From Candidatus Methanophagales archaeon (lineage in GTDB: Archaea; Halobacteriota; Syntropharchaeia; Alkanophagales; Methanospirareceae): a stretch of 64,000 nt of DNA. The translations under genes were made by a program, and so were the position numbers. The notes under the pieces are model-generated. The model made no database searches, had not been told where the DNA came from, and saw only the letters and a program-made list of their open reading frames with translations. The stretch lies in the NCBI GenBank assembly GCA_017883965.1, contig JAFNKG010000001.1, positions 14,893-78,892 of the forward strand, written 5' to 3'. Positions 2,217 through 49,883 of the stretch are shown piece by piece. Each line of letters begins with the position of its first letter. Within the stretch, counting starts at the first letter, position 1.

Positions 2217-3692
2217 TTATCCCTCGCCGAAGAATCGCCTCATCGCTGGATACATCTCCATCATCTGCTCTGATGCCACGTCCTCATAAAGCCGGTAAGC
2301 AATGCTAACTGCCAGAAGTAAACCAGTGCCTGATGCACCTCCAAGTGTGCCCAGCATATCAGAAAATACGCACAAAACACCCAAAATAGCACCCCCCATT
2401 AGCGCTATTTTCGGTATATATCCCTCCATCATACTCTCTATCGTTGCCGGGCTCCTGCGATGCCCCGGTATTTGTAGCCCTGAGCGATGTATCTGCGATG
2501 CTACATCCTTCGCTCCCATTCCGGTCGTATTTATCCAGAATAGAGCGAATACCGCCCCACCTATGACCATAAAAGAAAGGTCAACAGCCAATCTCGTGGC
2601 AACTTGCCAACCCGCATAAGGTATTGTCATAAGCCCCGGGAACCAATCCCAGGGACCATACATGGGGTCGAGATAATACACCAAGCCTGATGCCGCAGTT
2701 CCGTATTCATCATACGTTCCGAATATAGTAATTCCACGGGAATGAAGCATTCGTCCAAAGCCCTGTATGCTCGCCTGCATCGCTCTCACGAGAATCATCG
2801 GAAGCACACTTGCGTATAACAGCTTAATTGGGAACCTGCCACGAGCACCTCTTGCCATCGAATGCGCTAACGGTATCTCTAAACGAGTGCTTTCGAGGTA
2901 AACAACGAGGAAAAAAACTCCGATAGTTGTTATAAGTGCGATTATGTGATGCTGGAAAAGAAAAACCATTCCTCCTTCCAATATCTCGTATGCGGGTACT
3001 TGCAACGGCGAACCCGGCAATAGTAACTGAATCCATCTGGGTATTACACCCACTGCCAATCCGAACTCGTCTGGCATCCAACCTATAAGCCCGGTAATTA
3101 ATTGTTTAGAGACACCCGCGATGATGAACAACGAAACGCCTGACCCTATTCCCCATTTTGATACCACCTCATCCATGAAGTATATAAGCATCCCGCCGAT
3201 GAAGATTTGAATGAAGAGCAGGAACGAGATGACCTGCAAAGATACACCGAGTTTATCTGCTATTCCCTGGTCAGGCACATAAAAGCCCACAACGTATGTC
3301 AAACTGATAAAAACCGAAAAGACCAAAACGAGCAGTTTCTGTAGGTTCTGATAAAACGCCTGGTCGCGGGGGTCGCTCAAGTTCAATTTTATTATTCCCG
3401 CGCCAACCAGAAGCTGTAAGACAATGGAAGCATCAACAATTGGCATGATTCCGAGAGCAGTTAATGTATATGTTTCACCCGCAAAAATTGCACGCCATCT
3501 ACCGAAAATATCTATTGATTGCTCAACATCCATCCCAAAGAGATAAACATTGCCAAGTGCGAAAAAGAGAACGAGTATGGCAATAGTCCAGCCTAACTTC
3601 GCTTTAAAATGAACGTGCCACCCAGGGCGTTCAACCATGGGGAATTTACTTAAAATCGGTGTTAATGCATCTCTTAATCTTATCTCGTTCAT
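2217..3692 (-). CDS. secY: preprotein translocase subunit SecY
   Basis: 491 aa polytopic membrane protein. Contains the SecY signature GIMPIVDASIVLQLL and sits directly downstream of rpl15, as in archaeal ribosomal operons. Confidence 0.9.
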   Translation of the reverse strand: MNEIRLRDALTPILSKFPMVERPGWHVHFKAKLGWTIAILVLFFALGNVYLFGMDVEQSIDIFGRWRAIFAGETYTLTALGIMPIVDASIVLQLLVGAGIIKLNLSDPRDQAFYQNLQKLLVLVFSVFISLTYVVGFYVPDQGIADKLGVSLQVISFLLFIQIFIGGMLIYFMDEVVSKWGIGSGVSLFIIAGVSKQLITGLIGWMPDEFGLAVGVIPRWIQLLLPGSPLQVPAYEILEGGMVFLFQHHIIALITTIGVFFLVVYLESTRLEIPLAHSMARGARGRFPIKLLYASVLPMILVRAMQASIQGFGRMLHSRGITIFGTYDEYGTAASGLVYYLDPMYGPWDWFPGLMTIPYAGWQVATRLAVDLSFMVIGGAVFALFWINTTGMGAKDVASQIHRSGLQIPGHRRSPATIESMMEGYIPKIALMGGAILGVLCVFSDMLGTLGGASGTGLLLAVSIAYRLYEDVASEQMMEMYPAMRRFFGEG

Positions 3693-38995: not shown

Positions 38996-41449
38996 TTACC
39001 ACACACGTCCGCTGATGAAAAACGGTTTTTTACCCTCCATCTTGCTTATCTGCACTGCTCCTCGGTCCATAAGCGGAGCCACATATTTTAAAACATCCTG
39101 CACAGGTATCGAAAGTGTTTCCGAAATCCCTTCAATTGTATATTCCTCGCTCTCCAACATAGAAGTTACCTTTTCTTCCATGAATTCGCTTCTTATTATT
39201 TCCTCAAAAAAAGCATCTATCTCTTTCTCTTCCAATTTAACATATCTCGTAATTTCCGCTATCTTACCGACAATCCATCTTAGTTTAGGGTTATTCACAC
39301 CCTCTTTTACCGTGATGAGTGAGTCATAATGCTTTTCAAGCTCAAAAGGTCCCAATTCTTTTATCTCATTCACCGAACTCTCTATCAATTCCTTGAACTT
39401 CTGCCCTTCTGCTGCGGAAATCCAGCCGAGTCTTAACCTCTCCGGGTCTATTCCTGCGAATTCAAGCAGTTTCTTCACGAACTTCACGCGCATCTCTGCA
39501 TGATAGTTGCCCACAACATAATGACAATCGCCGATATGGCACCCTGTAACGAGAACACCTTCTGCGTGGTGGAAGAAAGGCTCGACCATCATCCACGGGT
39601 CTATTCGTCCGGAACACATCACCCTGATTAGCTTTGCATTCGGCGGATACTGGAATCGCGATACACCAGCCATATCTGCACCTGCGTAAGAGCACCAGTT
39701 GCAACTGAAAGCCAATATCCTCGGTCTTATCTCTATTCTCTCCTCTTCCGGCACAAACGCACTTTTTATCTGTGCTAAAATCTGCTCATCGCGGAAGTGC
39801 CGCATTGTTATCGCCTGATACGGACACGCACCTGCGCATGTTCCGCATCCTTTGCACAATGCCCTGTTCCCCTCTGCACCAAACTCCCCCGGTCCATACA
39901 TATTTATTTTAATACTGCCATATTCGCATATCTCCGCACATAATCCACATCCCTTGCATATACTCTGGCTTATGTCCGAAACAATACCCTCTGTTTCTAC
40001 TTCGCTTTTTGTCAATATTGTGGAAGCCCTTGATGCAGTTCCATACGCCTCCGCTACACTTTCAGGCACGAATTTCGGTGAATGCGCCGTCCCGCATAGA
40101 AAAACACCGTCGGTAGAGAAATCAATGGGTCGCAGCTTGACATGCGCTTCAAAGAAAAATCCATCCAGGCCCAACGGAACCCTTAATAGTTTAGAAAGTT
40201 CCAATGCATCCGGGTGCTGCACCATCGGTGTGGAGAGAACAACCAAATCGGCTTTGTATTCTCGCTCCTCTCTCACGAACTCAGAGAAGAACTTCACTTT
40301 CAGTCCTCCATCCTCTTTCACTACTTCCGGAAGTTTATCAGGACTATACTTATCGAATCGTATGCCGGTTTGCATTGCTTTCCTGTAAAGATTCTCGTAT
40401 TCGTCGCCAAATACACGAATCCCATTGTGGAGTATATGAATATTCGCATCAGGATTTTTTTCCTTGAGTAAAATTGCATTTTTTATCGCCACTGCACAAC
40501 AGATTCTCGAACAGTATGCCACTCTTTGCCCTCTGGAACCCACACATTGAATCATAACCACTTCTTTCTCTTTCAACTCGCTATCTTTCTGCTTCTCTTC
40601 CAGTTCCATCTGCGTGATTACTTCCTCATATTCGCCGTATCCATAGAGTCCGTCTGACTTTAGAACCTCCGCACCCGTGGCAACTATTATCGTGCCCACC
40701 TTGAAATTATGAGCTTTCTCCTCTCCATTCTCCTTTTGCACGACAGTTACCTCAAAGTTTCCGACATATCCGTCCACTTTCCTAACGAGGGAAGAAGTGA
40801 AGAGTTTTATTCGTTGATGCTCTTTTACTTTCTTAATTGTAGGTTCTAAAGATGCGAGAGCATCTACATTCCCGGGGTAAAGCTTGTTTATCTTTCGTAA
40901 CAGCCCTCCGACTTCCGCTTCTTTTTCCACGAGATACACATCGAAGCCTCGATTTGCAATACTTAGCGCTGTGGTCATGCCCGATACACCCGCACCAATA
41001 ACCATTGTAGTGTTCTCAACGCCGATATTTATGTATTCTAATGGCTCTAACCTCGCAGCTCTGACAACACCCATTCTAACCAAATCCTTTGCCTTCTCCG
41101 TTGCTTCTTCAGGCTCTCGCATGTGCACCCAGCTACACTGGTCTCGAATGTTCACAAAATCGAAAAGATAAGGGTTTAATCCTGCATCCTGGCACGCACT
41201 TCGGAATAACGGCTCGTGTGTTCTCGGTGTGCATGCCGCCACTATCACCCTGTTAAGCCCGTGTTCCTTTATCGCATTTTTTATCGCCGTCACGCCCTCA
41301 TCTGAACACGTGTATATATTGCGTTCCACATATACAACTCCGGGAAGCTTTTCTGCGTATTCTATTACTGATGGCACATCCACAGTGCCACCAATATTCG
41401 TGCCGCAGTGGCAAACAAAAACCCCTGTTCTTACCTCCTCATTTGCCAT
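38996..41449 (-). CDS. HdrA2-type heterodisulfide-reductase subunit A fused to an MvhD domain plus a C-terminal extension of about 130 aa
   Basis: HdrA motifs (VFVCHCGTNIGG, VIGAGVSGMTTA, two CxxCxxC ferredoxin clusters) followed by an MvhD motif (ILAFSCNWCSYAGADMAG). The C-terminal tail has no recognisable domain. Confidence 0.85.
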   Translation of the reverse strand: MANEEVRTGVFVCHCGTNIGGTVDVPSVIEYAEKLPGVVYVERNIYTCSDEGVTAIKNAIKEHGLNRVIVAACTPRTHEPLFRSACQDAGLNPYLFDFVNIRDQCSWVHMREPEEATEKAKDLVRMGVVRAARLEPLEYINIGVENTTMVIGAGVSGMTTALSIANRGFDVYLVEKEAEVGGLLRKINKLYPGNVDALASLEPTIKKVKEHQRIKLFTSSLVRKVDGYVGNFEVTVVQKENGEEKAHNFKVGTIIVATGAEVLKSDGLYGYGEYEEVITQMELEEKQKDSELKEKEVVMIQCVGSRGQRVAYCSRICCAVAIKNAILLKEKNPDANIHILHNGIRVFGDEYENLYRKAMQTGIRFDKYSPDKLPEVVKEDGGLKVKFFSEFVREEREYKADLVVLSTPMVQHPDALELSKLLRVPLGLDGFFFEAHVKLRPIDFSTDGVFLCGTAHSPKFVPESVAEAYGTASRASTILTKSEVETEGIVSDISQSICKGCGLCAEICEYGSIKINMYGPGEFGAEGNRALCKGCGTCAGACPYQAITMRHFRDEQILAQIKSAFVPEEERIEIRPRILAFSCNWCSYAGADMAGVSRFQYPPNAKLIRVMCSGRIDPWMMVEPFFHHAEGVLVTGCHIGDCHYVVGNYHAEMRVKFVKKLLEFAGIDPERLRLGWISAAEGQKFKELIESSVNEIKELGPFELEKHYDSLITVKEGVNNPKLRWIVGKIAEITRYVKLEEKEIDAFFEEIIRSEFMEEKVTSMLESEEYTIEGISETLSIPVQDVLKYVAPLMDRGAVQISKMEGKKPFFISGRVW

Positions 41450-41604: not shown

Positions 41605-41925
41605 TCACACCTGTATTTTTGAGACTGTAATGCAGTAGAGTTTGTCTAGTTCAGTAAAATGATCTAACAAAGCCTCGTATAGTTGTGCCTGTTTAGAATT
41701 CATGAACACATATCCACACGTCGGACAATACATTTTTTCAAACCCATGTACCGTGATTCTACCATTTAAAAAATCGACATCAAATTGCTTTATTTCCAAT
41801 TTAGACCCACATTTTGGACATTCCGTTATTTCAACTATTTCCCAATCTTCTTCCTTCCACCCTTCTTCCCAACTTTCTTCCGCCATAATATCCTCTGGTT
41901 TTATTTCTTCTGTAACCATAACCAT
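41605..41925 (-). CDS. YgiT/MqsA-type zinc-ribbon protein; candidate antitoxin partner of the upstream BrnT-like gene
   Basis: 106 aa. CPKCGS...ITVHGF...YCPTCG zinc ribbon. Starts 4 nt after the brnT-like stop. A paralogous ribbon occurs in the 59587 protein. Confidence 0.55.
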   Translation of the reverse strand: MVMVTEEIKPEDIMAEESWEEGWKEEDWEIVEITECPKCGSKLEIKQFDVDFLNGRITVHGFEKMYCPTCGYVFMNSKQAQLYEALLDHFTELDKLYCITVSKIQV

Positions 41926-41929
41926 ATTA

Positions 41930-42208
41930 CTATTTTTTCGCTTTCCTCTTATATAACTTTTTCATCTTCTCTGGTGCTTCATATGCACTCAGCATTATAA
42001 ATATATTTTCTCTTACCTTCCGCAAAACTATGAATAGGACACGCCCTTCCGCTTCTGCTAAAACTATGGTGCGCTTTTCACCATTTCGAGTTACTGCTTT
42101 TGTATATGTTTTCCCAATTAAAGCATTTTCAACTTCATACCTCCTAACACCGTGCCTTCTAATATGCTCGATTGCCTTTTCATCCCAGACTATACGGACC
42201 TTTGACAT
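41930..42208 (-). CDS. BrnT-like (DUF497) toxin
   Basis: 92 aa. IVWDEKAIEHIRRHGV and IMLSAYEAPEKMKKLY match the BrnT N- and C-terminal motifs. Paralog of the 7274 gene. Confidence 0.6.
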   Translation of the reverse strand: MSKVRIVWDEKAIEHIRRHGVRRYEVENALIGKTYTKAVTRNGEKRTIVLAEAEGRVLFIVLRKVRENIFIMLSAYEAPEKMKKLYKRKAKK

Positions 42209-42289: not shown

Positions 42290-43606
42290 CTAAGACAATG
42301 AAGAAATAACCTCACCCGCTCTACCAGCCGCGCCACTCGCCTCTGCAACCGAATCCGTAATATCTTTTGGACTCTGTGCAAACCCACAAACAAATACTCC
42401 TTCTCTTGTGGTATCTACCGGCGCATATAACGGGTCTTTCACCTTAAAGAATCCATATTCGTCCAATTCTACTCCCAATATCTTTGCCTGTTCTTCGACT
42501 CCCTTACTCGGCACCAGCGCCGTAGCCAATATAACTAAATCAACCTCCATCCTTTTAAGTTCCCCTGTCAGGGTATCTTCATACCATATCACCGGGCTCT
42601 TATCCCCATTCTCCGTTATTTTCCCGGGTCTCGCCCTTATATAATTTATCCCATATTCTTCCATACCCCGCTCTATATACTCCTGAAAGCCTCTTCCAAA
42701 AGCTCTGAGGTCAGTATAAAATACGAAAGATTCCATATCCTCCTCATGTTCCCTCGCCAGCATCCCGCTCTTCGTTGAATACATGCAGCACACGGAGGAG
42801 CAATAAGGATATCTCTTCAGGTCCCTCGAGCCCACGCAAAGGATAAAAGCTAACTTCTTCGCTGGTTTTTCATCGCTTAACCGAACGAGATGCCCGCCAG
42901 TTGGTCCTCCTGCATTTATCATCCTCTCATACTGTAATCCCGTTATCACATTTTCTATTCGCCCATATCCATACTCCTCTATCTCATAAGGTTCATAAGC
43001 ATCGAGTCCTGTTGCAACTATTATAGCACCCACATGAAGCTCAACCTCTTCCTCTTTCTGCTCGAAATCAATCGCATCCCTCTCACACGCTTCTTTACAC
43101 GCTGGTGCTTCCCCGCATTTGCCCTTCGTTATGAATATACATCTTTCCTCATCAATTACCGCAACCCTCGGAACTGCCTGTGCAAAAGGCAGGTATGCCG
43201 CTCCTCTTTTCCCAAGCCCCATATCGAATTCGTCCGGGAATCTATCTTTAAGTAAACAAATATCTTCACAAGCGCTGCACCCCGTGCATTTTTCTTCGTC
43301 CACGTATCTCGGTTTCTTACGAACTTTTACAGTAAAGTCCCCTTTCTCTCCCGATACCTCGCTCACCACGGAATACGAAAGCACGGTGATGTTCTCATGC
43401 CCGAAACATTCGAGCATCTTCGGCGCAAGTATGCATATCGAGCAGTCATTTGTCGGGAAGGTTTTATCCAACTGAGCCATTCGACCACCGATAGAAGAAT
43501 TCTTCTCTACTAAATACACCCTGAAGTCCTGCTCCGCTAAGTCAAGCGCCGCTTGAATCCCTGCTACTCCTCCTCCTATCACCAGCACACTTTTATTGCC
43601 TTCCAT
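42290..43606 (-). CDS. truncated HdrA-like FAD flavoprotein lacking the N-terminal Cys domain and the C-terminal ferredoxin
   Basis: 438 aa. VLVIGGGVAGIQAA, the conserved CSICILAPKM and an inserted CTGCSACEDIC ferredoxin. HdrA core only. Confidence 0.8.
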   Translation of the reverse strand: MEGNKSVLVIGGGVAGIQAALDLAEQDFRVYLVEKNSSIGGRMAQLDKTFPTNDCSICILAPKMLECFGHENITVLSYSVVSEVSGEKGDFTVKVRKKPRYVDEEKCTGCSACEDICLLKDRFPDEFDMGLGKRGAAYLPFAQAVPRVAVIDEERCIFITKGKCGEAPACKEACERDAIDFEQKEEEVELHVGAIIVATGLDAYEPYEIEEYGYGRIENVITGLQYERMINAGGPTGGHLVRLSDEKPAKKLAFILCVGSRDLKRYPYCSSVCCMYSTKSGMLAREHEEDMESFVFYTDLRAFGRGFQEYIERGMEEYGINYIRARPGKITENGDKSPVIWYEDTLTGELKRMEVDLVILATALVPSKGVEEQAKILGVELDEYGFFKVKDPLYAPVDTTREGVFVCGFAQSPKDITDSVAEASGAAGRAGEVISSLS

Positions 43607-43670: not shown

Positions 43671-44075
43671 TCAATCATTGCCATTTTCAAAACTGGTCAC
43701 TTTATTTTTCCTAAAGCAGATTTCAAAGTGTTTGAAGACATCTTCTCTTCCTAAAAGATAAGGAACATCCTCGATTAATGCAATTGCAACCTTGGCTTTA
43801 AACATTTTATCTACAATCTTCATTCTAACTTCTTTTATGATTACCGGAATTTTGCCATCTCCAATTCCTCTTATCTCTTTAATATCCTCCTCTTCCACCC
43901 TTGTCTTTAATGCCCTAATGAAAGATATTGGAAGAAGCGTAACATCCGCACCTGAATCAGTATAAGCCAGTATCCGTGTCCAACCGAGTTCTTCGGTCTC
44001 TATTTCAAATTCGACAATAGGCCTGTAAATCTCTCCAAATATCCTCGACCTCTCTTTTTGATAGGGAAAATCCAT
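43671..44075 (-). CDS. retropepsin-like aspartic protease (DSGA active site), copy 1
   Basis: 134 aa. AYTDSGADVTLLP has the clan-AA D[ST]GA motif. Paralog of 49228-49641. Confidence 0.7.
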   Translation of the reverse strand: MDFPYQKERSRIFGEIYRPIVEFEIETEELGWTRILAYTDSGADVTLLPISFIRALKTRVEEEDIKEIRGIGDGKIPVIIKEVRMKIVDKMFKAKVAIALIEDVPYLLGREDVFKHFEICFRKNKVTSFENGND

Positions 44076-44315
44076 CTAATCACCTGTAAGAATCAATGTC
44101 TCTTCCCTTTGCACAAACGCCAAGACTGGGTTATCTTTTGGAAAATCTTTTTTCGCCTTTTCTAAGACATCTATTGCATTATCTCCGCTGGCAACAATCT
44201 TCTTTCCTATCAGTGCGATGTGTTTCCCTCTAAACGCTTCTAATTCCTTTGGAAAAGAAGCAAACCATTTTAGTTCTTCATACATTCTTTCACTACCTCT
44301 TTTCTTTTTGTGCAT
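44076..44315 (-). CDS. small conserved partner protein of the aspartic protease, copy 1
   Basis: 79 aa. Homologous to 49650-49883 (YEELKWF...KIVASG...ETLILT versus YEWFL...KVVARA...ETLVLI). Abuts the protease gene. Confidence 0.45.
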   Translation of the reverse strand: MHKKKRGSERMYEELKWFASFPKELEAFRGKHIALIGKKIVASGDNAIDVLEKAKKDFPKDNPVLAFVQREETLILTGD

Positions 44316-44339
44316 ACTTTTATTATAATTTTTAGTTTT

Positions 44340-45437
44340 TTAAACTTCCCCTAATTTCTCTAACTCCTCTACACCTCTCTTCTTTTTCAAACTCGCTAAC
44401 TTCGCTATCTCATTGCGATCAACAGAAGTTGTTTCTAAGCCTTTCCCTTTCAATAAACCAAACAACTCCTCACCCTTCTTTGACCTTGTAATCACAGTCG
44501 AATACCCATCAGGACTGCCGACACTGCCCACAGAGATGTCAGCCAATCTGGCAGTAAAATCAGTGCAGAAAAAGCAGCTCTCTCGCACCGCTCTTTCCAG
44601 TTCTCCCACCTCACATGCCTTTGACTTGCCTTCTATATACACAACGAACTTCCCCTTCTTCACATCTATTTTATCCGCAAGCCCAAGGTCAACCTCCAGT
44701 ATTTCACTTACAATCGGTTTGAGCAATTCATAATAAAAATTCTCGAAACAGAAAAGCCCTATATTATACAACTCCACATCAGAATAAACTCTTTGAATTC
44801 TTCTAATTCCATAAATACTGCACGGGAGAGCAACAATTGCTATTCTCTCCTTCCCTCCTCCTATTATTGCTTCCACCAGTCTTTCTACGGTAGGTGCGAA
44901 TTGATATTTAGAGCCACTCGCTTTGATAATATCCTCCACATTCTCTGTCATAATCGCTTTAGCCCTGAAACCATCCTCTCTATGCACGACAATCGCACTG
45001 TCAAAAAGCCCTTTTTCCATACCCGCGGTTAACAACGAAGTAACTATCCCTCCGTCTTGCCCTTCCACGACAGTTTTTCCTGCCGTTATTTCCTTCACGA
45101 TGCCAATATCCTCTTCCCTCTCTCCGTCCAAGAACAACTGCTCGAGCTCACTCACGTATGTCTCTTCTTCAATCCCGGATTTTAATGCCCCTGCTTTGAG
45201 CCCCCAGATAAACTTCGGATAAGCCACCTCCGATGGACATCTGTCACTGCATATCTGGCAACTCATGCAAGACCATATTTTTTCATCAAGGTCAATAAAC
45301 CCCTCCAGCGCTCTTTTAGCAATCAACCGTGGAGAATAATCGGATTCAAACCACGATATCGGGCAGCTGGCATTGCATTTGCCGCATTCCAGGCAGTTAT
45401 ACACCTTCGTTTCCTGGATGAGTTCTTCTATTTCCAT
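44340..45437 (-). CDS. FrhB/FpoF-family F420-interacting iron-sulfur flavoprotein with an N-terminal 2x[4Fe-4S] ferredoxin
   Basis: CLECGKCNASCP and CMSCQICSDRCP motifs followed by FrhB N- and C-domains. Confidence 0.8.
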   Translation of the reverse strand: MEIEELIQETKVYNCLECGKCNASCPISWFESDYSPRLIAKRALEGFIDLDEKIWSCMSCQICSDRCPSEVAYPKFIWGLKAGALKSGIEEETYVSELEQLFLDGEREEDIGIVKEITAGKTVVEGQDGGIVTSLLTAGMEKGLFDSAIVVHREDGFRAKAIMTENVEDIIKASGSKYQFAPTVERLVEAIIGGGKERIAIVALPCSIYGIRRIQRVYSDVELYNIGLFCFENFYYELLKPIVSEILEVDLGLADKIDVKKGKFVVYIEGKSKACEVGELERAVRESCFFCTDFTARLADISVGSVGSPDGYSTVITRSKKGEELFGLLKGKGLETTSVDRNEIAKLASLKKKRGVEELEKLGEV

Positions 45438-45443
45438 TTTATT

Positions 45444-47798
45444 TCACTTCCATCCGTTTCTAAACCGCTCTAAGTTTGTGGGGTCAAATATCTTTCCCGG
45501 TGGCATTTTCATCGGCTTCCAGCCTATTTTTTCCAATTCAATTTTCAGCTCCTTTCTTTTCGCAGGCGGTAATTCTGACTCGTCTCGCACAAACAAATGC
45601 CAATCGTCTGGCATTGTCCCGAACATCCGCTCGTGCAAATCTATATAATTGCTTAATTTTATTAATCTTCCTCTTGGATTGTCACTCGGTCTTATGCAGA
45701 GCTTTGCAGTCATTACCATCGCTTCTTCCTTTGTTTCTGCTGCATATATCAGATGTTCGGGTGCGGGTCCAAAATAGAATGGTTCTCCCCCTACTTTGAC
45801 GTTGTAGGCATACCAGTCCTCCTCTTTATCTTTTCTGCCAAGATAAAGTCTTCTGTATGCTTTAGAGCCATGAGGTCCTAAGATCACAGGGATTCCCCAT
45901 CTGTTGCAGCCAGTAGCGATAGAAGCCGCCTTCTGCGACATCGCACCCCATGCAACTCCACAAGCACCAACTCTGCTTAATATGTAGTCAGAGATTTCCT
46001 CGAAGTTACCTCTTAGCTTCCTTCTTGCGAATATCCCTGCTATTTTTATCGCAGCGCCAATGACATGTGCATTTGAGACGCAAGAGCCGATGTTCACCAT
46101 GCAACCTCTATCAAAAGCACCTGTATATTTTTCATACAACGTCTTCCCTTCTTCATCCTTATATCTGGCTATCTCCATTGCAGAGCACCCGGTTGCCACC
46201 ACGATATATCCGCGCTTTGCGAATTCATCCGCCATCTCCGCAACTTCGCTTCCCCCTTTTGGGTAGTTTGGACAGCCAACGTACGCTATCACACCAGGGA
46301 TGTCACCAAAAACGATAGGTGCGCCGACATTCCTTATCTCAGTATCCAAAACCGGACCTCGCCCCGCTCTTACTTTATACTTCTCTTCCTTTATTTTGTA
46401 TTCCGCCGCCACTTTTATCATGTTCAGTGGCGATAGTTCTGCTCTGCATACTGATTCACACTTTGCACAGCCCACACACGCCTCATATAACCCTGCAAGC
46501 TTATCAAAGCTGCCTTTCGCTCCTGCTACCATCGCATCCGGGATATGCAAATCATTTGGACATGCCCTTCTGCATTCGTCACACTGCACACAAGATTCCG
46601 CAAGTTTTTTCAGCTCTCCTCTGTCAGGCAAAGCTTTTAAACGCTCTCTTTTTGGCGACACCCGCAAAGCAACCTCAACAGCAACTTCTCCTACCTTCTC
46701 CGCATCGAGTATCAATGCACCTGGCGCTCCATTCACCAAATCATTTATTATCTCCTCCGCAGGGGCATCGGTCCTATCAGGAAGCCCATAGCATATTTTG
46801 TCATTGCTTGCTATTACCCGCGTCTTCACCTTCATAGCTTCTTCCAATACATCTGTCCGCACACATTGTTCATCCACTACGATAACATCTGCTATCCTCG
46901 ACCTTATGGCGTATAACTGCTGAGCTATGTGACCGACGATTTTAGCCCTTGGCTCGTATCTCGTTATATCTGTCGCTGTGCAACACATCCCGCAGACTTC
47001 CACTTCGCCCTCCATCCCCCTCGCTGTAAGATAATCCACCATTTCTGCACCCGGCACAACATTATGTCCTATACACAAAATCACGGGCTTAGACCTCTCA
47101 ACAACGCCAAGACCTAATTCAACCAAAGGGGCATCAGGGTCACCTTTGGGGAAATTATAACCCACTATCTGTGCTATATCAGCTATTTCCTTTGCTAAGT
47201 TGTCAATCATGCCAATATGCAAATTTTTAGACTCGAAATCAATAAAAGCTCCTTCTTGACCCGTGTTCACAGCGGATAGGCAATTTGTAATCTCCTTCTC
47301 TACATAGTCCAATGCATCATCCAAATCACCCAATCGCCTCGGTCTTATTCCTGTGACTGTTCTTGTTATCGGAGCTTCAATATCAATATACGAACCTAAA
47401 TCTATCGGGAAATTGCTGCCATACTTTTCTATCAAATGGTCAACCAAATGACGAGCATGTCCAGTATGAGCAGCAGTCCCCATACAACACGCTATCAGAA
47501 CGATTCTTGCCTGCTGTGCATCTATTTTTATTCCACATGCACCCTTCTTGCCGCATGTTAGGTCGCATTTCCCATACGTACAGAGACAGCACATGTCGCA
47601 GAACGGTGCGTAAAAAGGCTTATATCGGTTCAAAAGTCTGAAGTCCCAGCCTCGAAGCGTTGATATGCTCGGCATCGAATGAGGTCCCATCGGTTCCCAT
47701 TCTTCCTCTCCCCACTCCTCTATTATCTCGCCTATGCTTATCCGCACGTTTTGCAAGTCGGAGAAGGTGAAAATCCCGCCCTTTTTTATTGCTTCCAT
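45444..47798 (-). CDS. cdhA: CO dehydrogenase/acetyl-CoA synthase complex alpha subunit (Ni-Fe-S CODH catalytic subunit)
   Basis: 784 aa. Colinear with CdhA ([32 protein letters not shown], inserted ferredoxin [47 protein letters not shown]). Confidence 0.9.
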
Positions 47799-48025: not shown

Positions 48026-48397
48026 CTATTCATACTTGGATGGGCATTTAACCAGTAGTTGTGTCGCATTCAGATGATAGGGCGAAGTAAGCGTTCCTAT
48101 GGCAACTATTTTTTGCCCCTCTTTGAAGTTCTGAGGCATAGTTCCTGCGAATGCCACATCTATTGTAGCCTTGCCGTCAGTGAGTTTAAAGAGTAAAGAA
48201 CCATCCTCTCCCCAACCTGTGGACCCGCTGACAACAGTGGCTAAAATCTGAACCTCTTTGTTAATATATTCGTCATTACCAGCGACCTGCGAGACTGTTA
48301 AATAAGGATTGATATAAGATGTAAAGGCATCGTAGGCGAGAATTGTACTTATAACTATTAGAGCGACAACGATAATATGAACGGGTTTAAATTTCAT
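48026..48397 (-). CDS. ccmE: cytochrome c-type biogenesis heme chaperone CcmE (archaeal CxxxY type)
   Basis: 123 aa. N-terminal membrane anchor, OB-fold region, and C-terminal LVKCPSKYE, the archaeal C-x3-Y heme-binding motif. Confidence 0.8.
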   Translation of the reverse strand: MKFKPVHIIVVALIVISTILAYDAFTSYINPYLTVSQVAGNDEYINKEVQILATVVSGSTGWGEDGSLLFKLTDGKATIDVAFAGTMPQNFKEGQKIVAIGTLTSPYHLNATQLLVKCPSKYE

Positions 48398-48553: not shown

Positions 48554-49231
48554 TTAAACACCTCCTTTTTCGTAGATTAATGCGTTCACACGGCTTTCTA
48601 AAGACCAGACAGTGGATGCGGTTATCAGGAGATAAAAGAAGAATAGGGAAGCTGCTAAGAGATTAAAAAATAAAGTTGCAAGCATTGGCGAGGTTATAGA
48701 AATTCCAGACGCTTTCACTATCTGAGGATGAAGCGTTGACAATAGATTTATGGACAGATAACTCAGCGGTATGGTAGAAAAAGCGAGGATATTATACACC
48801 GCTCCTATTACCGCTCTTTTCTCAACTTCTCCGATGGAGTATTTTACGGAAATATAGCCCGCGTATGCAATCCAGAGTATGAGCGTAGTTGTTTCTCTCG
48901 GGTCCCAGTTCCAATAGCTCCCCCATGTGGCGTTTGCCCAAATCGAACCAGAAATCAATGCTATTGCACCATAAACCAACCCTAAGATAGCCGATACCTC
49001 TGCCGTTCTATCGTATGTATGCTTTCTTTTAGCTAAAAAGAGGATGCTTGCGAACAGAGAAAGTGAAAAAGCAAGATAGCAAACCCATGCTGCGGGCACA
49101 TGCGTATATAAAATCCGGTAAAGGTCTCCCATAGTTGCTTCTGAAGGAGCGGCAACATAAGCCGCATAAGAAGCGATTACGCTCACTGCTACGGCGATGC
49201 AAAGAAGAATATCTCGCTTCATTTCCTTCAT
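48554..49231 (-). CDS. ccmC: heme exporter protein CcmC
   Basis: 225 aa. WWD-motif region WGSYWNWDPRE and a conserved His-containing loop. Confidence 0.85.
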   Translation of the reverse strand: MKEMKRDILLCIAVAVSVIASYAAYVAAPSEATMGDLYRILYTHVPAAWVCYLAFSLSLFASILFLAKRKHTYDRTAEVSAILGLVYGAIALISGSIWANATWGSYWNWDPRETTTLILWIAYAGYISVKYSIGEVEKRAVIGAVYNILAFSTIPLSYLSINLLSTLHPQIVKASGISITSPMLATLFFNLLAASLFFFYLLITASTVWSLESRVNALIYEKGGV

Positions 49232-49641
49232 TTTTTACCCACCCATTCAAACAAAATAATCCCTTCACTCTGTTTGAATTCAACATTAAACCTGTCAAAA
49301 ACGTCCAATATCTCAAGCAATGGTGGAACATCCTCTATCAGTGCCCACGCGACCCTTGCATCGAATTCACATTCTCCAATGGTCATCTTCACCCACTTGA
49401 CGATAACCGGAACTTTTCCTTTGCTTATTCCAACAAGTTCAAATACTCGTGATTCGTCCATTTTAAAACCCGGCGCTTCACCGAAAATCCTCGGCAGCAA
49501 TGCTATATCCGCACCAGAATCTATGTACATCGGAACAATCGTTTTTCCTTCTTCCGTCACTAACGTAACCTCGGCAACTGGTCTATATATCACATCCGTT
49601 ATTGCCGAAAGTTCTTTTCGATATTTGAAAATAATCGTCAT
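49228..49641 (-). CDS. retropepsin-like aspartic protease (DSGA), copy 2
   Basis: 137 aa. MYIDSGADIALLP. Stop abuts the ccmC start. Confidence 0.7.
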   Translation of the reverse strand: MTIIFKYRKELSAITDVIYRPVAEVTLVTEEGKTIVPMYIDSGADIALLPRIFGEAPGFKMDESRVFELVGISKGKVPVIVKWVKMTIGECEFDARVAWALIEDVPPLLEILDVFDRFNVEFKQSEGIILFEWVGKK

Positions 49642-49649
49642 TCTACTCC

Positions 49650-49883
49650 CTATATTAATACTAATGTCTCAGAAGATGGGACTTTTGCCACAAATGGGAT
49701 TTTTCCTTTATATTTCTTCCTGATCTCGTCTAAAGCAGCTTTTAAATTCTCCTTTGCACGTGCAACAACTTTCTGCTCGATTATAATTACGTATTCATTC
49801 TCCTCGTATTCTCTCAGGTCAGCATTCAAAAACCATTCGTAATCTTTGCTCGCCATCTCTTCACCTCCTCTCCCCTTTGCCAA
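49650..49883 (-). CDS. small conserved partner protein of the aspartic protease, copy 2
   Basis: 77 aa. Paralog of 44076-44315. Confidence 0.45.
   Translation of the reverse strand: MAKGRGGEEMASKDYEWFLNADLREYEENEYVIIIEQKVVARAKENLKAALDEIRKKYKGKIPFVAKVPSSETLVLI

Follow-up and report, generated by a model that had tools for sequence, protein, structure and literature searches.

The cassette and its surroundings

Two copies of a two-gene cassette are found in the window, that is, in the whole stretch of 64,000 nucleotides from a Candidatus Methanophagales (ANME-1) archaeon that was analyzed here. In each of them, a gene for a small protein (gene A) is followed by a gene for a retropepsin-like protease (gene B). 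The features discussed below are the following:

43671-44285, minus strand: copy 1 cassette, DUF5678 gene A then retropepsin-like protease gene B
44076..44285, minus strand: copy 1 gene A, DUF5678 small protein, most likely 69 aa plus TAG stop (Pfam, homologue starts, SD-like GAGGT)
43671..44075, minus strand: copy 1 gene B, retropepsin-like (clan AA) aspartic protease, 134 aa (Pfam RVP, profiles, AF2, Foldseek)
43947-43958, minus strand: catalytic D40-S41-G42-A43 codons of protease 1 (GAT TCA GGT GCG)
44286..44339, minus strand: copy 1 upstream region, from the stop of the frhB-like gene to gene A (TATA-like box and SD, read from the sequence)
44328-44321, minus strand: TATA-like box TTATAATA, ca 36-43 nt upstream of the ATG at 44285
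44299-44295, minus strand: SD-like GAGGT, 9 nt upstream of the ATG at 44285
49228-49856, minus strand: copy 2 cassette, DUF5678 gene A then retropepsin-like protease gene B
49650..49856, minus strand: copy 2 gene A, DUF5678 small protein, probably 68 aa plus stop (Pfam, HMM E 1.7e-23)
49228..49641, minus strand: copy 2 gene B, retropepsin-like protease, 137 aa (47% identity to protease 1, HMM E 1e-51)
49510-49521, minus strand: DSGA of protease 2 (sequence read)
38996-41449: HdrA-MvhD
42290-43606: HdrA-like
44340-45437: FrhB-like
45444-47798: CdhA-like CODH

Both open reading frames of copy 1 named in the original prediction are present on the minus strand, at 44076..44315 (a maximal ORF of 79 aa) and 43671..44075 (134 aa). 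The sequence also bears out the 0-nt spacer, the TAG of the small gene abutting the ATG of the protease gene in frame, and the YTDSGAD motif is found in protease 1. The small gene stands as an ORF, but its length of 79 aa is a probable over-extension. The second methionine is the start in all homologues of this protein, and the ATG at 44315 has neither GAGGT nor the TTATAATA box upstream, sitting itself within the A/T-rich box region. Because the homologue starts, GAGGT and TTATAATA all favor the ATG at 44285, the small gene is most likely 69 aa long (44076-44285). The region 44286..44339 is likely the cassette's own promoter, as predicted from its sequence elements.

The metabolic surroundings of copy 1 are as originally described, with CdhA-like CODH, FrhB-like, HdrA-like and HdrA-MvhD genes. 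A paralogous pair had been placed about 5 kb away in the same orientation, and copy 2 is indeed found ca 5.5 kb from copy 1 on the same strand. This second pair lies outside the CODH/Hdr cluster, at the head of the ccmC-ccmE genes (CcmC and CcmE by Pfam), where the TGA stop of protease 2 overlaps the ATG of ccmC (ATGA, 49231-49228). The maximal small ORF of copy 2 given by the ORF finder is 49650..49883, with a TTG start at 49883; this start is unlikely, and the ATG at 49856, with GGAGGTGA 6 nt upstream, is probably used instead. The two proteases share 47% identity (E 3e-31) and the two small proteins 28% (E 3e-6). Both copies are co-directional with the operon genes around them, and the cassettes have a GC content of 37-40%, compared to 44-45% in the flanking genes. 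The window also contains a BrnT-like gene.

The protease

Profile searches, which had been proposed for both proteins, identify protease 1 as a member of Pfam RVP (22.5 bits, the gathering score being 20.7) and both small proteins as DUF5678, while protease 2 matches Pfam Asp_protease_2 weakly. Profile matches of protease 1 in the PDB are the RVP domain of Ddi1 (E 1e-4) and the FIV and HTLV proteases. The AF2 monomer model of protease 1 has a pLDDT of 75.8, and all its top Foldseek matches in the PDB are retropepsins, Ddi1 RVP or Rickettsia APRc, with a probability of ca 1 and a moderate TM score of 0.4-0.55. Neither window protease was matched by the NCBIfam aspartic-protease models, such as the clan AA families TIGR03698 (AF_0612 family) and TIGR02281, even at E <= 1. 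Searches with PHROGs and NCBIfam profiles gave no meaningful matches for the cassette proteins.

The protease retains all the catalytic signatures at the sequence level. The conservation of DSGA in homologues, on which the original prediction depended, is complete: the motif is 100% conserved among 90 unique pairs, and D40-S-G-A is also invariant in a set of 24 homologues. In the same 90 pairs, the conservation of D44, R18-P19, the flap residue G70 and L108-G109-R110 is 96% or higher; within the flap R-G-I-G-x-G, G70 reaches 99%, and L107-L108-G109-R110 ranges from 89 to 100%. When the family is aligned to the HIV-1 protease, R8-P9, D25-T-G-A (DTGAD) and the IGGIGG flap of the latter all have counterparts.

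The single-lobe fold, R-P, D-S/T-G-A-D, the Gly-rich flap and hh-G-R-D/E, which the window family has in common with retropepsins, Ddi1 and APRc, imply a homodimeric active site. Residues 101-134 of protease 1 have low pLDDT in the monomer model, which may reflect the absent dimer partner. There are also differences to these relatives. The window protease is free-standing, predicted to be cytoplasmic and 134 aa long, and, unlike the retropepsins, it has an extra conserved N-terminal segment of ca 10 aa (F3, E8, S10). Unlike the retroviral proteases, it lies outside any polyprotein and always has a separate small partner. It consists of the RVP-like domain only, with none of the UBL, HDD and UBA domains of Ddi1, and has no membrane anchor of the kind found in APRc or SpoIIGA.

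The DUF5678 protein

Against Pfam DUF5678 (PF18929; gathering cut-off 23.2 bits), the small proteins score 53.7 bits (E 1.8e-14, copy 1) and 35.9 bits (E 6.4e-9, copy 2). The AF2 model of the copy 1 protein (pLDDT 82.8) has an alpha-alpha-beta-beta-alpha-beta topology followed by an extended conserved C-terminal tail, and superposes on Pandoravirus DUF5678 proteins with TM scores of 0.70-0.72. The tail, (V/I)-P-x-E-E-x-L-(I/V)-L, is strictly conserved and is followed by 0-8 variable residues; in many DUF5678 proteins the conserved L66 is the exact C-terminal end. The diverse small-protein alignment (A3) has no conserved stretch. None of the DNA-binding antitoxin folds (RHH, HTH, AbrB, Phd) is recognizable in DUF5678, and a full-text literature search returned no paper on the family. 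Some homologues of the cassette proteins are annotated as "succinyl-CoA synthetase subunit alpha" or "lysine/ornithine N-monooxygenase"; these names are spurious and go back to the weak resemblance of the segment G-K-x-V-A-x-x-G to Rossmann-type segments (E ca 1 or more).

Pairing and mobility

A scan seeded with the protease only, using one genome per species, yielded 80 loci from ca 56 archaeal and ca 24 bacterial MAGs. The cassette is scattered over ANME, methanogen, Bathyarchaeia, DPANN and CPR genomes, where it is usually labeled "hypothetical". Of 88 protease genes (82 archaeal and bacterial loci), 85 directly follow a DUF5678 gene of the same orientation, so that the suggested neighborhood survey finds the co-occurrence in both domains. 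The two genes also co-diverge: in a mirror-tree comparison the pairwise distances of A and B correlate with r = 0.78, and none of 999 Mantel permutations gave as high a value. The co-occurrence and the co-divergence support the earlier view of the protease and its small partner as a fixed functional unit. With 85/88 joint occurrences and an invariant DSGA, the pair thus holds together in other genomes and keeps its active-site motif, the two points on which that view had been staked.

The A-B junctions mostly overlap, by 4 nt in 16 cases and by 10 nt in 27 cases, and at 56/80 junctions the two frames are offset by 2 mod 3. The in-frame TAG|ATG junction is seen in window copy 1 and in L003, a close Methanophagales MAG. 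One natural A::B fusion exists (P0293). We also considered interprotein mutual information as a guide to an A-B interface. The top pairs couple positions 36/37/41 of the small protein with 50/51/54/55 of the protease, and position 57 with 98. These pairs track clades and, with a Neff of ca 66, are not a reliable guide to the interface.

We now turn to the genomic neighborhood, which bears on the suggestion that the cassette is a maturation factor for the neighboring metalloenzymes. L003 has the same CdhA-FrhB-cassette-HdrA order as the window, but it is the only one of 115 related loci to share both flanks, L083 sharing the downstream HdrA alone. The neighbors are unrelated, with 251 clusters among 280 flanking ORFs; the 149 nearest neighbors match 187 Pfam families, of which PIN and archaeal ATPases are the commonest. 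In blastn comparisons with relatives of 80-88% identity elsewhere, the homology is confined to W1 3009-3634, the cassette itself being W1 3031-3645. The DNA homology with relatives in other contexts starts 0-22 nt upstream of the start codon, or 48 nt in the case of L083.

Several copies per genome are found, namely two here, two in L009, and L050 and L069 in one Methanocellales MAG, and tandem copies occur in L009, L041, L059 and L123. Among the neighbors are Phage_integrase, MNT/HEPN, HicBA, DUF4258/DUF2283 and PIN genes. In two unrelated loci integrase genes lie directly downstream of the cassette, and in one lineage a GC-rich interspersed repeat flanks it. Searches for relatives of the cassette among 2.9 million contigs of IMG/VR, 50,697 INPHARED phage records and 72,556 PLSDB plasmids found none. 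Viral, phage or plasmid carriage was rejected on this ground, and no vehicle of mobility was seen in these collections. The cassette is a self-contained, horizontally mobile element of ca 0.6 kb, and its two genes are inherited together and move as one obligate unit.

Asymmetric decay

The loss of the two genes is not symmetric. In a metagenome scan seeded with the small gene, using the closer small-protein alignment (A2), seven loci that extend far enough downstream carry an intact gene A and no protease match at all. The protease is truncated in L085 and L089/90, and no intact protease accompanies DUF5678 in 3/8 diverse look-ups; overall, about a quarter to a third of the DUF5678 genes have lost their protease. 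These orphan A genes are under purifying selection (dN/dS ca 0.10 at dS 0.45-1.0). Conversely, damage to A comes together with damage to B in all four independent cases (L006/L108, L113-115, L050 and L011, the last of which has no start codon), and no intact protease without its partner was found among the loci examined. The small gene thus outlives the protease and the reverse is not seen, in what are small samples. It is important to point out that this pattern, in which B never occurs without A and A sometimes occurs without B, is equally expected of a dedicated enzyme-substrate pair.

Proposed function and alternatives

Of the functions offered originally, a TA-like module or a protease with its inhibitor fits the comparative evidence best, and a protease with its substrate is a possible reading. 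We propose, at about even chances, that the cassette is a TA-like or defense module, with the protease as effector and DUF5678 as neutralizer. Gene B would then encode a cytoplasmic and catalytically competent retropepsin-like aspartic protease, active as a homodimer by analogy with its relatives, that acts as an effector and, if left unrestrained, does harm or imposes a cost. Gene A, on the same message and translationally coupled to gene B, would be the first to be translated, and DUF5678 would serve as the dedicated neutralizing partner of the protease, most likely by direct binding. Its C-terminal tail, (V/I)-P-x-E-E-x-L-(I/V)-L, is the obvious candidate for the inhibitory element; it may either occupy the substrate cleft as a beta-strand or cap the dimer interface. 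The pay-off may be addiction, abortive infection or defense.

Should this hold, a natural inhibitor of retropepsins would become accessible to study, prokaryotic conflict systems would gain a new effector chemistry, and a function would be found for the PADLOC candidates PDC-M52 and PDC-M08 and for an orphan Pfam family (DUF5678). The effectors known from TA and abortive-infection systems act as nucleases, kinases, NAD-ases or pore formers, or else are proteases of the serine, cysteine or metallo type; to our knowledge, a retroviral-type aspartic protease has never been shown to be one. It is a more tentative proposal, and one we would on balance not yet rely on, that there is a widespread archaeal and bacterial class of TA or abortive-infection systems with an aspartic protease toxin, of which DUF5678 and the retropepsin-like protease are the founding example. 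If so, it would be the first aspartic protease among such toxins, DUF5678 would be a natural proteinaceous retropepsin inhibitor that works through its conserved C-terminal strand, and the present family would, with its PDC-M52/PDC-M08 sisters, make up a reservoir of free-living single-lobe proteases in prokaryotes, akin to the proteases of Ddi1 and of retroelements.

A different assignment of the roles is that DUF5678 is the functional regulator or effector and the retropepsin-like enzyme its private processing protease, which for example trims the variable residues behind the tail or switches DUF5678 on or off on a signal. That DUF5678 can stand alone under purifying selection and the protease never does so, that the two proteins co-diverge, and that the P0293 fusion is polyprotein-like would all suit such a pair, and the hydrophobic tail with its 0-8 variable residues resembles a retropepsin-type cleavage site. 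Many DUF5678 proteins, however, end at L66 and thus have nothing to trim. Furthermore, the multiple copies, the association with islands, the cassette-limited mobility and the frequent decay are unexpected for a regulator with a private protease, and no intact B lingers once A is broken (4/4 independent cases). We therefore consider this assignment unlikely. Another option, to which we give a rather low probability, is two-component proteostasis or regulated proteolysis, with DUF5678 as an activator, adaptor or assembly factor for folding, dimerization or substrate choice, in analogy with ClpS and the accessory domains of Ddi1.

A relic of a mobile element or virus, i.e. a remnant of the gag-pro kind, or a protease of capsid maturation along with its scaffold or partner, that has no cellular function of its own, is very improbable. 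The retroviral type of the protease, the integrases and the repeat next to some cassettes, and the occurrence of DUF5678 proteins in Pandoraviruses could be taken in its favor, as could the shared reading frame of the two copy 1 ORFs, which a single TAG separates. On the other hand, the viral, phage and plasmid collections hold no relatives, genes for reverse transcriptase, capsid or other parts of an element do not recur near the cassettes, and both the strong purifying selection and the invariant active site speak against a relic. Gag-pro-style stop read-through or frameshift fusion was rejected as a general feature, since most junctions, apart from those here and in L003, put A and B in different frames.

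Finally, a role in maturing or processing CODH, FrhB-like, Hdr or cytochrome c maturation proteins, which would account for the co-directional, tightly packed position of both copies among metabolic genes and for the order kept in L003, is hardly credible, because the neighbors are essentially never conserved, one close MAG being alone in sharing the full CODH/Hdr context, close relatives lie in unrelated contexts, copy 2 sits with different neighbors in a cytochrome-c maturation cluster, and the family is found in CPR bacteria and DPANN archaea that lack CODH, Hdr and Ccm enzymes. There is a risk in annotation that the cassette is mistaken for a part of the metabolic operon into which it is inserted.

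Comparison with known systems

The closest described systems are PDC-M52 and PDC-M08, two-gene A>>B cassettes that were found through "guilt by embedding" in BREX, DISARM and type I RM loci and are listed as "candidate" phage-defense systems, with 381 and 55 RefSeq instances, respectively (Payne et al., bioRxiv 10.1101/2024.01.29.577857). Their B proteins (ca 118-139 aa) are homologous to the window protease family over nearly the full length. PDC-M52B is matched by 83/98 diverse members of the family (best E 9e-14) and PDC-M08B by 34-36 of them, the window proteases themselves giving weak matches (E 9e-4 and 4e-3). About 55 DUF5678 partners, in contrast, gave no match to the PADLOC "A" models, and the partner family is therefore different or too divergent. 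Membership of PDC-M52 or PDC-M08 was thus rejected, B being distantly homologous and A never matching. The PDC sets come, moreover, from RefSeq bacteria, whereas the window family is mostly from archaeal, CPR or uncultured lineages.

The cassette resembles type II TA systems (VapBC, HicAB, BrnTA, MNT/HEPN) in being a small, translationally coupled pair with a product of ca 70 aa first and a putative effector of ca 135 aa second. Further points of likeness are the patchy spread across domains, the multiple divergent copies per genome and the cassette-limited homology, as well as the vicinity of other TA genes and integrases and the orphan "antitoxin" genes whose "toxin" is lost. It differs from them in that the DNA-binding domain of TA antitoxins is not recognizable in DUF5678, and the co-directional placement inside operons, where pair 2 even overlaps the start of ccmC, is less typical of TA loci. 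We know of no TA toxin that is an aspartic protease, and a full-text literature search found no retropepsin-type TA or defense effector.

A protease encoded together with its own neutralizer does have a precedent in staphopain and staphostatin, where a small cytoplasmic inhibitor encoded in the same operon as the protease protects the producer. Staphopain is a secreted cysteine protease, its gene order is unlike that of the cassette, and there is no kinship in sequence or fold; the protective logic, however, would be the same as the one predicted here for DUF5678 and its retropepsin-like partner.

Gene pairs in the window

Family HMMs run against all six frames detect exactly two copies of the cassette in the window, each consisting of a small gene followed by a protease gene. 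The relevant features are:

43671-44075, minus strand: pair 1 protease ORF, 134 aa
44076-44315, minus strand: pair 1 small ORF, maximal, 79 aa
49228-49641, minus strand: pair 2 protease ORF
49650-49883, minus strand: pair 2 small ORF, maximal
45444-47798: CdhA-like CODH
44340-45437: FrhB-like protein
42290-43606: HdrA-like protein
41930-42208, minus strand: BrnT-like toxin, 92 aa (Pfam BrnT_toxin, E 1.3e-6, below gathering score)
41605-41925, minus strand: Zn-ribbon/DUF7479 protein, 106 aa, after the BrnT-like gene
38996-41449: HdrA-MvhD
48554-49231: ccmC, headed by pair 2
48026-48397: ccmE, headed by pair 2

The ORFs of pair 1 abut with a 0-nt spacer (...GGT GAT TAG ATG GAT...), as stated in the original prediction, but the 79-aa length given there for the small protein is probably too long. 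The second Met is the start in every homologue, and its ATG in pair 1, at 44285, is preceded by GAGGT at a distance of 9 nt and by a TTATAATA box at ca 36-43 nt, while the ATG at 44315 lacks a Shine-Dalgarno sequence and lies within the A/T-rich box region. The small gene is therefore most likely 69 aa long. In pair 2 it starts at 49856, preceded by GGAGGTGA. In copy 1 (44073-44078) and in the Methanophagales locus L003, both ORFs are in one frame with a single TAG between them, and read-through of the TAG in copy 1 would give a 204-aa fusion; this shared frame is probably a coincidence, because most other loci are out of frame.

The predicted paralogy of the two pairs, both on the minus strand, was borne out, with identities of 47% for the proteases (E 3e-31) and 28% for the small proteins (E 3e-6). 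The profile searches called for at that stage assign both small proteins to DUF5678 (Pfam, E 1.8e-14 and 6.4e-9) and protease 1 to RVP, the retroviral aspartyl protease family, slightly over the gathering score; protease 2 matches Asp_protease_2 weakly. NCBIfam and PHROGs gave no useful match for the pair proteins, and the top database match is a 'Methanophagales archaeon' protein with 94% identity, which places the window in an ANME-1-type archaeon.

Pair 1 sits between the FrhB-like and HdrA-like genes, and Pfam confirms the CODH/Hdr character of the surroundings. A second TA-like pair, the BrnT-like and Zn-ribbon/DUF7479 genes (41605-42208, minus strand), breaks the Hdr cluster between the HdrA-like and HdrA-MvhD genes. 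At pair 2, the protease stop overlaps the ccmC ATG (ATGA, 49228-49231), and ccmA/ccmB are divergent from pair 2-ccmC-ccmE. This copy thus has the divergent ccmA/B-ccmC promoter region on one side and ccmC-ccmE on the other; it may have come to drive these cytochrome c maturation genes or to share a transcript with them. Since both window copies are inserted co-directionally into operons, and the stop of copy 2 overlaps the start of ccmC, host gene expression may now depend in part on the cassette or be disturbed by it.

Conservation of the pair

The DUF5678 protein and the protease are conserved together as a unit. Protease patterns alone were used to seed a scan of one genome per species, which yielded 80 loci, ca 56 of them archaeal (Methanophagales, Methanosarcinales/ANME-2/Methanoperedens, Methanocellales, Bathyarchaeia, Thermoplasmata, Altiarchaeales, Woese-, Pace- and Aenigmatarchaeota) and ca 24 bacterial (Patescibacteria, Delta- and Gammaproteobacteria, Chloroflexota, Planctomycetia, WOR-1/3, Cloacimonadota). 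Of 88 protease matches, 85 are directly preceded by a DUF5678 gene on the same strand, in line with the fixed partnership originally proposed. The three exceptions are the second piece of a gene broken by a frameshift (L006), a protease lacking a start codon behind a hicBA pair (L011), and a divergent DTGA protease with its own divergent 61-aa partner (L072). The last pair (L072 5240-5819, protease of 135 aa) is much more divergent and lies 1 kb downstream of a canonical one, so that the architecture also occurs outside the reach of the DUF5678 HMM. Neither of its proteins matches PADLOC.

Gene lengths stay constant at 64-79 aa and 131-143 aa, and the commonest junctions are overlaps of 10 nt (ATGxxxxTAG, 27 cases) and 4 nt (ATGA, 16 cases), which implies translational coupling. 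The two proteins co-diverge with r = 0.78, a value reached by 0 of 999 permutations, and a natural fusion of a DUF5678-like domain with the protease exists (P0293, 207 aa). The all-against-library HMM search gave 2,059 cluster representatives at E <= 1e-3, of which 453 remained at E <= 1e-10.

Protease and small protein

Profiles and models identify the protease as a genuine retropepsin-like enzyme, as had been proposed. Y38, D40-S-G-A-D44, P49, G70, D103 and P105 are invariant in 24 close homologues. Across distant lineages, represented by 90 unique pairs, conservation is 100% for DSGA and 96% or more for R18-P19, G70, L108-G109-R110, F114, F117 and F121. The family profile matches the Ddi1 RVP domain in the PDB (E 1e-4), and also FIV, HTLV and EIAV proteases. 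In hhalign comparisons with HIV-1 protease, Y-R-P-I-V pairs with Q-R-P-L-V, DSGAD with DTGAD, and R-G-I-G-D-G with the flap I-G-G-I-G-G. The top PDB matches found by Foldseek for the AlphaFold model (pLDDT 75.8) are only retroviral proteases, Ddi1 and Rickettsia APRc (probability ca 1, TM 0.4-0.55). An N-terminal extension of ca 10 aa (F3, E8, S10) is conserved and family-specific; inspection revealed no signal peptide or membrane segment.

The DUF5678 model (pLDDT 82.8) consists of two short helices, a β-hairpin, a helix, a strand and an extended C-terminal tail of lower confidence. Conserved positions in the 90 pairs are G20, A24, V31, G34, A44, P49, P53, P59, L64 and L66, and the tail has the pattern (V/I)-P-x-E/D-E/D-x-L-(I/V)-L, after which come 0-8 variable residues. 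The labels 'succinyl-CoA synthetase subunit alpha' and 'lysine/ornithine N-monooxygenase' on some homologues (P0073, P0100, P0075-P0079, P0144) appear spurious, a short Rossmann-like G-K-x-V-A...G stretch being their likely source. DUF5678 proteins are also encoded by Pandoraviruses, and their predicted fold is the same (TM ca 0.7; BFVD A0A2U7UG46, A0A2U7UD66, S4VV29).

Autonomy and mobility

Comparison of loci indicates an autonomous, mobile cassette. At 82 loci, the two ORFs closest to it on either side, 280 proteins in all, fall into 251 similarity clusters, and 149 nearest neighbours match 187 Pfam families, PIN and archaeal ATPases being the most frequent with five each. The order CdhA-FrhB-cassette-HdrA recurs only in L003, a Methanophagales contig 87% identical. 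We therefore reject the suggestion that the pair is a maturation factor for neighbouring metalloenzymes, and pair 2 in any case heads ccmC-ccmE.

At L083 (1-2800), only the downstream HdrA is shared with the window; cassette and HdrA are ca 89% identical to it, with the upstream CdhA/FrhB replaced by unrelated genes, and the left edge of the cassette thus coincides with a rearrangement breakpoint. Relatives with 80-88% cassette DNA identity in other contexts align by blastn only over coordinates 3009-3634 of the queried window region, where the cassette spans 3031-3645. Its GC content is 37-40%, against 44-45% in flanking genes. Several genomes have more than one copy (two in the window, four in the Methanocellales MAG Yes46-07), and tandem copies are present at L009, L041, L059 and L123. 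Recurrent neighbours are MNT/HEPN, HicBA, DUF433, DUF4258/DUF2283, PIN and, directly downstream, tyrosine recombinases; in the window a BrnT-like gene is near. The Phage_integrase recombinase follows directly in two unrelated loci (L001 6573-7769; L116/L117 3756-4950), which suggests that the cassette is located at the edge of integrated elements. Searches of IMG/VR, a phage collection and plasmids detected no relatives.

In a Methanosarcinales/'Methanobacteriota' sub-lineage, a GC-rich interspersed repeat of ca 135 nt is present on either side of the cassette, oriented alike (L004 1632-1770 and 2556-2692; at least six copies in L107; also L005, L010, L011, L093-L096, L099, L103). It is absent from the window, and could be a MITE/REP-like element mobilising the cassette in that sub-lineage.

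Asymmetric decay and possible mechanism

Among loci seeded by the small protein, many retain an intact small gene while the protease is missing, is left with 16-25 codons, or carries an internal deletion or a frameshift (L085, L089/L090, L091, L092, L097, L102, L110). In individual look-ups of diverse DUF5678 proteins, three of eight lacked an intact protease, and the other five had a 133-135-aa gene after them. The orphans L091, L092 and L102 show dN/dS of ca 0.10 at dS 0.45-1.0, so that purifying selection continues to act on them. Every damaged small gene (L006/L108, L113-115, L050, L011) is accompanied by a damaged protease. This asymmetry, seen in a small number of independent events, would be expected of a protease that is a liability when its partner is missing.

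A selfish or defensive two-gene cassette would account for the comparative evidence. The protease, predicted to be catalytically active, would be the effector, and DUF5678, made first from the same message, a dedicated protein restraining it. The mode we prefer is direct inhibition by way of the conserved extended tail, which could occupy the substrate cleft or cap the dimer-forming terminal β-sheet. Covariation between the two proteins mostly reflects clade markers.

As the main rival we consider a private protease-substrate pair, with which the decay asymmetry is also compatible, as a dedicated enzyme would be useless without its substrate. It is less likely that DUF5678 is an activator or adaptor of the protease, or that the pair is a relic of a mobile element.

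Relation to known systems

Full-text literature searches returned nothing on DUF5678, nor on a retropepsin-type toxin or defence effector; an unrelated retropepsin-domain protein of ca 100 aa is reported beside Sulfolobales type III CRISPR loci (PMC3973734). For TA loci, the co-directional insertion into operons seen for both window copies would be unusual. The closest likeness is to PDC-M08 and PDC-M52, two-gene cassettes with 381 and 55 instances, respectively, among the untested 'phage defence candidates' embedded in BREX, DISARM or type I RM loci (Payne et al., bioRxiv 10.1101/2024.01.29.577857). The window protease matches PDC-M52B and PDC-M08B weakly, but of 98 diverse family members 83 match PDC-M52B (best E 9e-14) and 34-36 match PDC-M08B, in both cases over almost the full length. 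The B proteins are thus homologous, whereas none of ca 55 DUF5678 partners matches a PADLOC 'A' model, the partner in the present family being different or very divergent. Judged by these profiles, the DUF5678-protease module is therefore a sister of PDC-M52/PDC-M08 and not a member.
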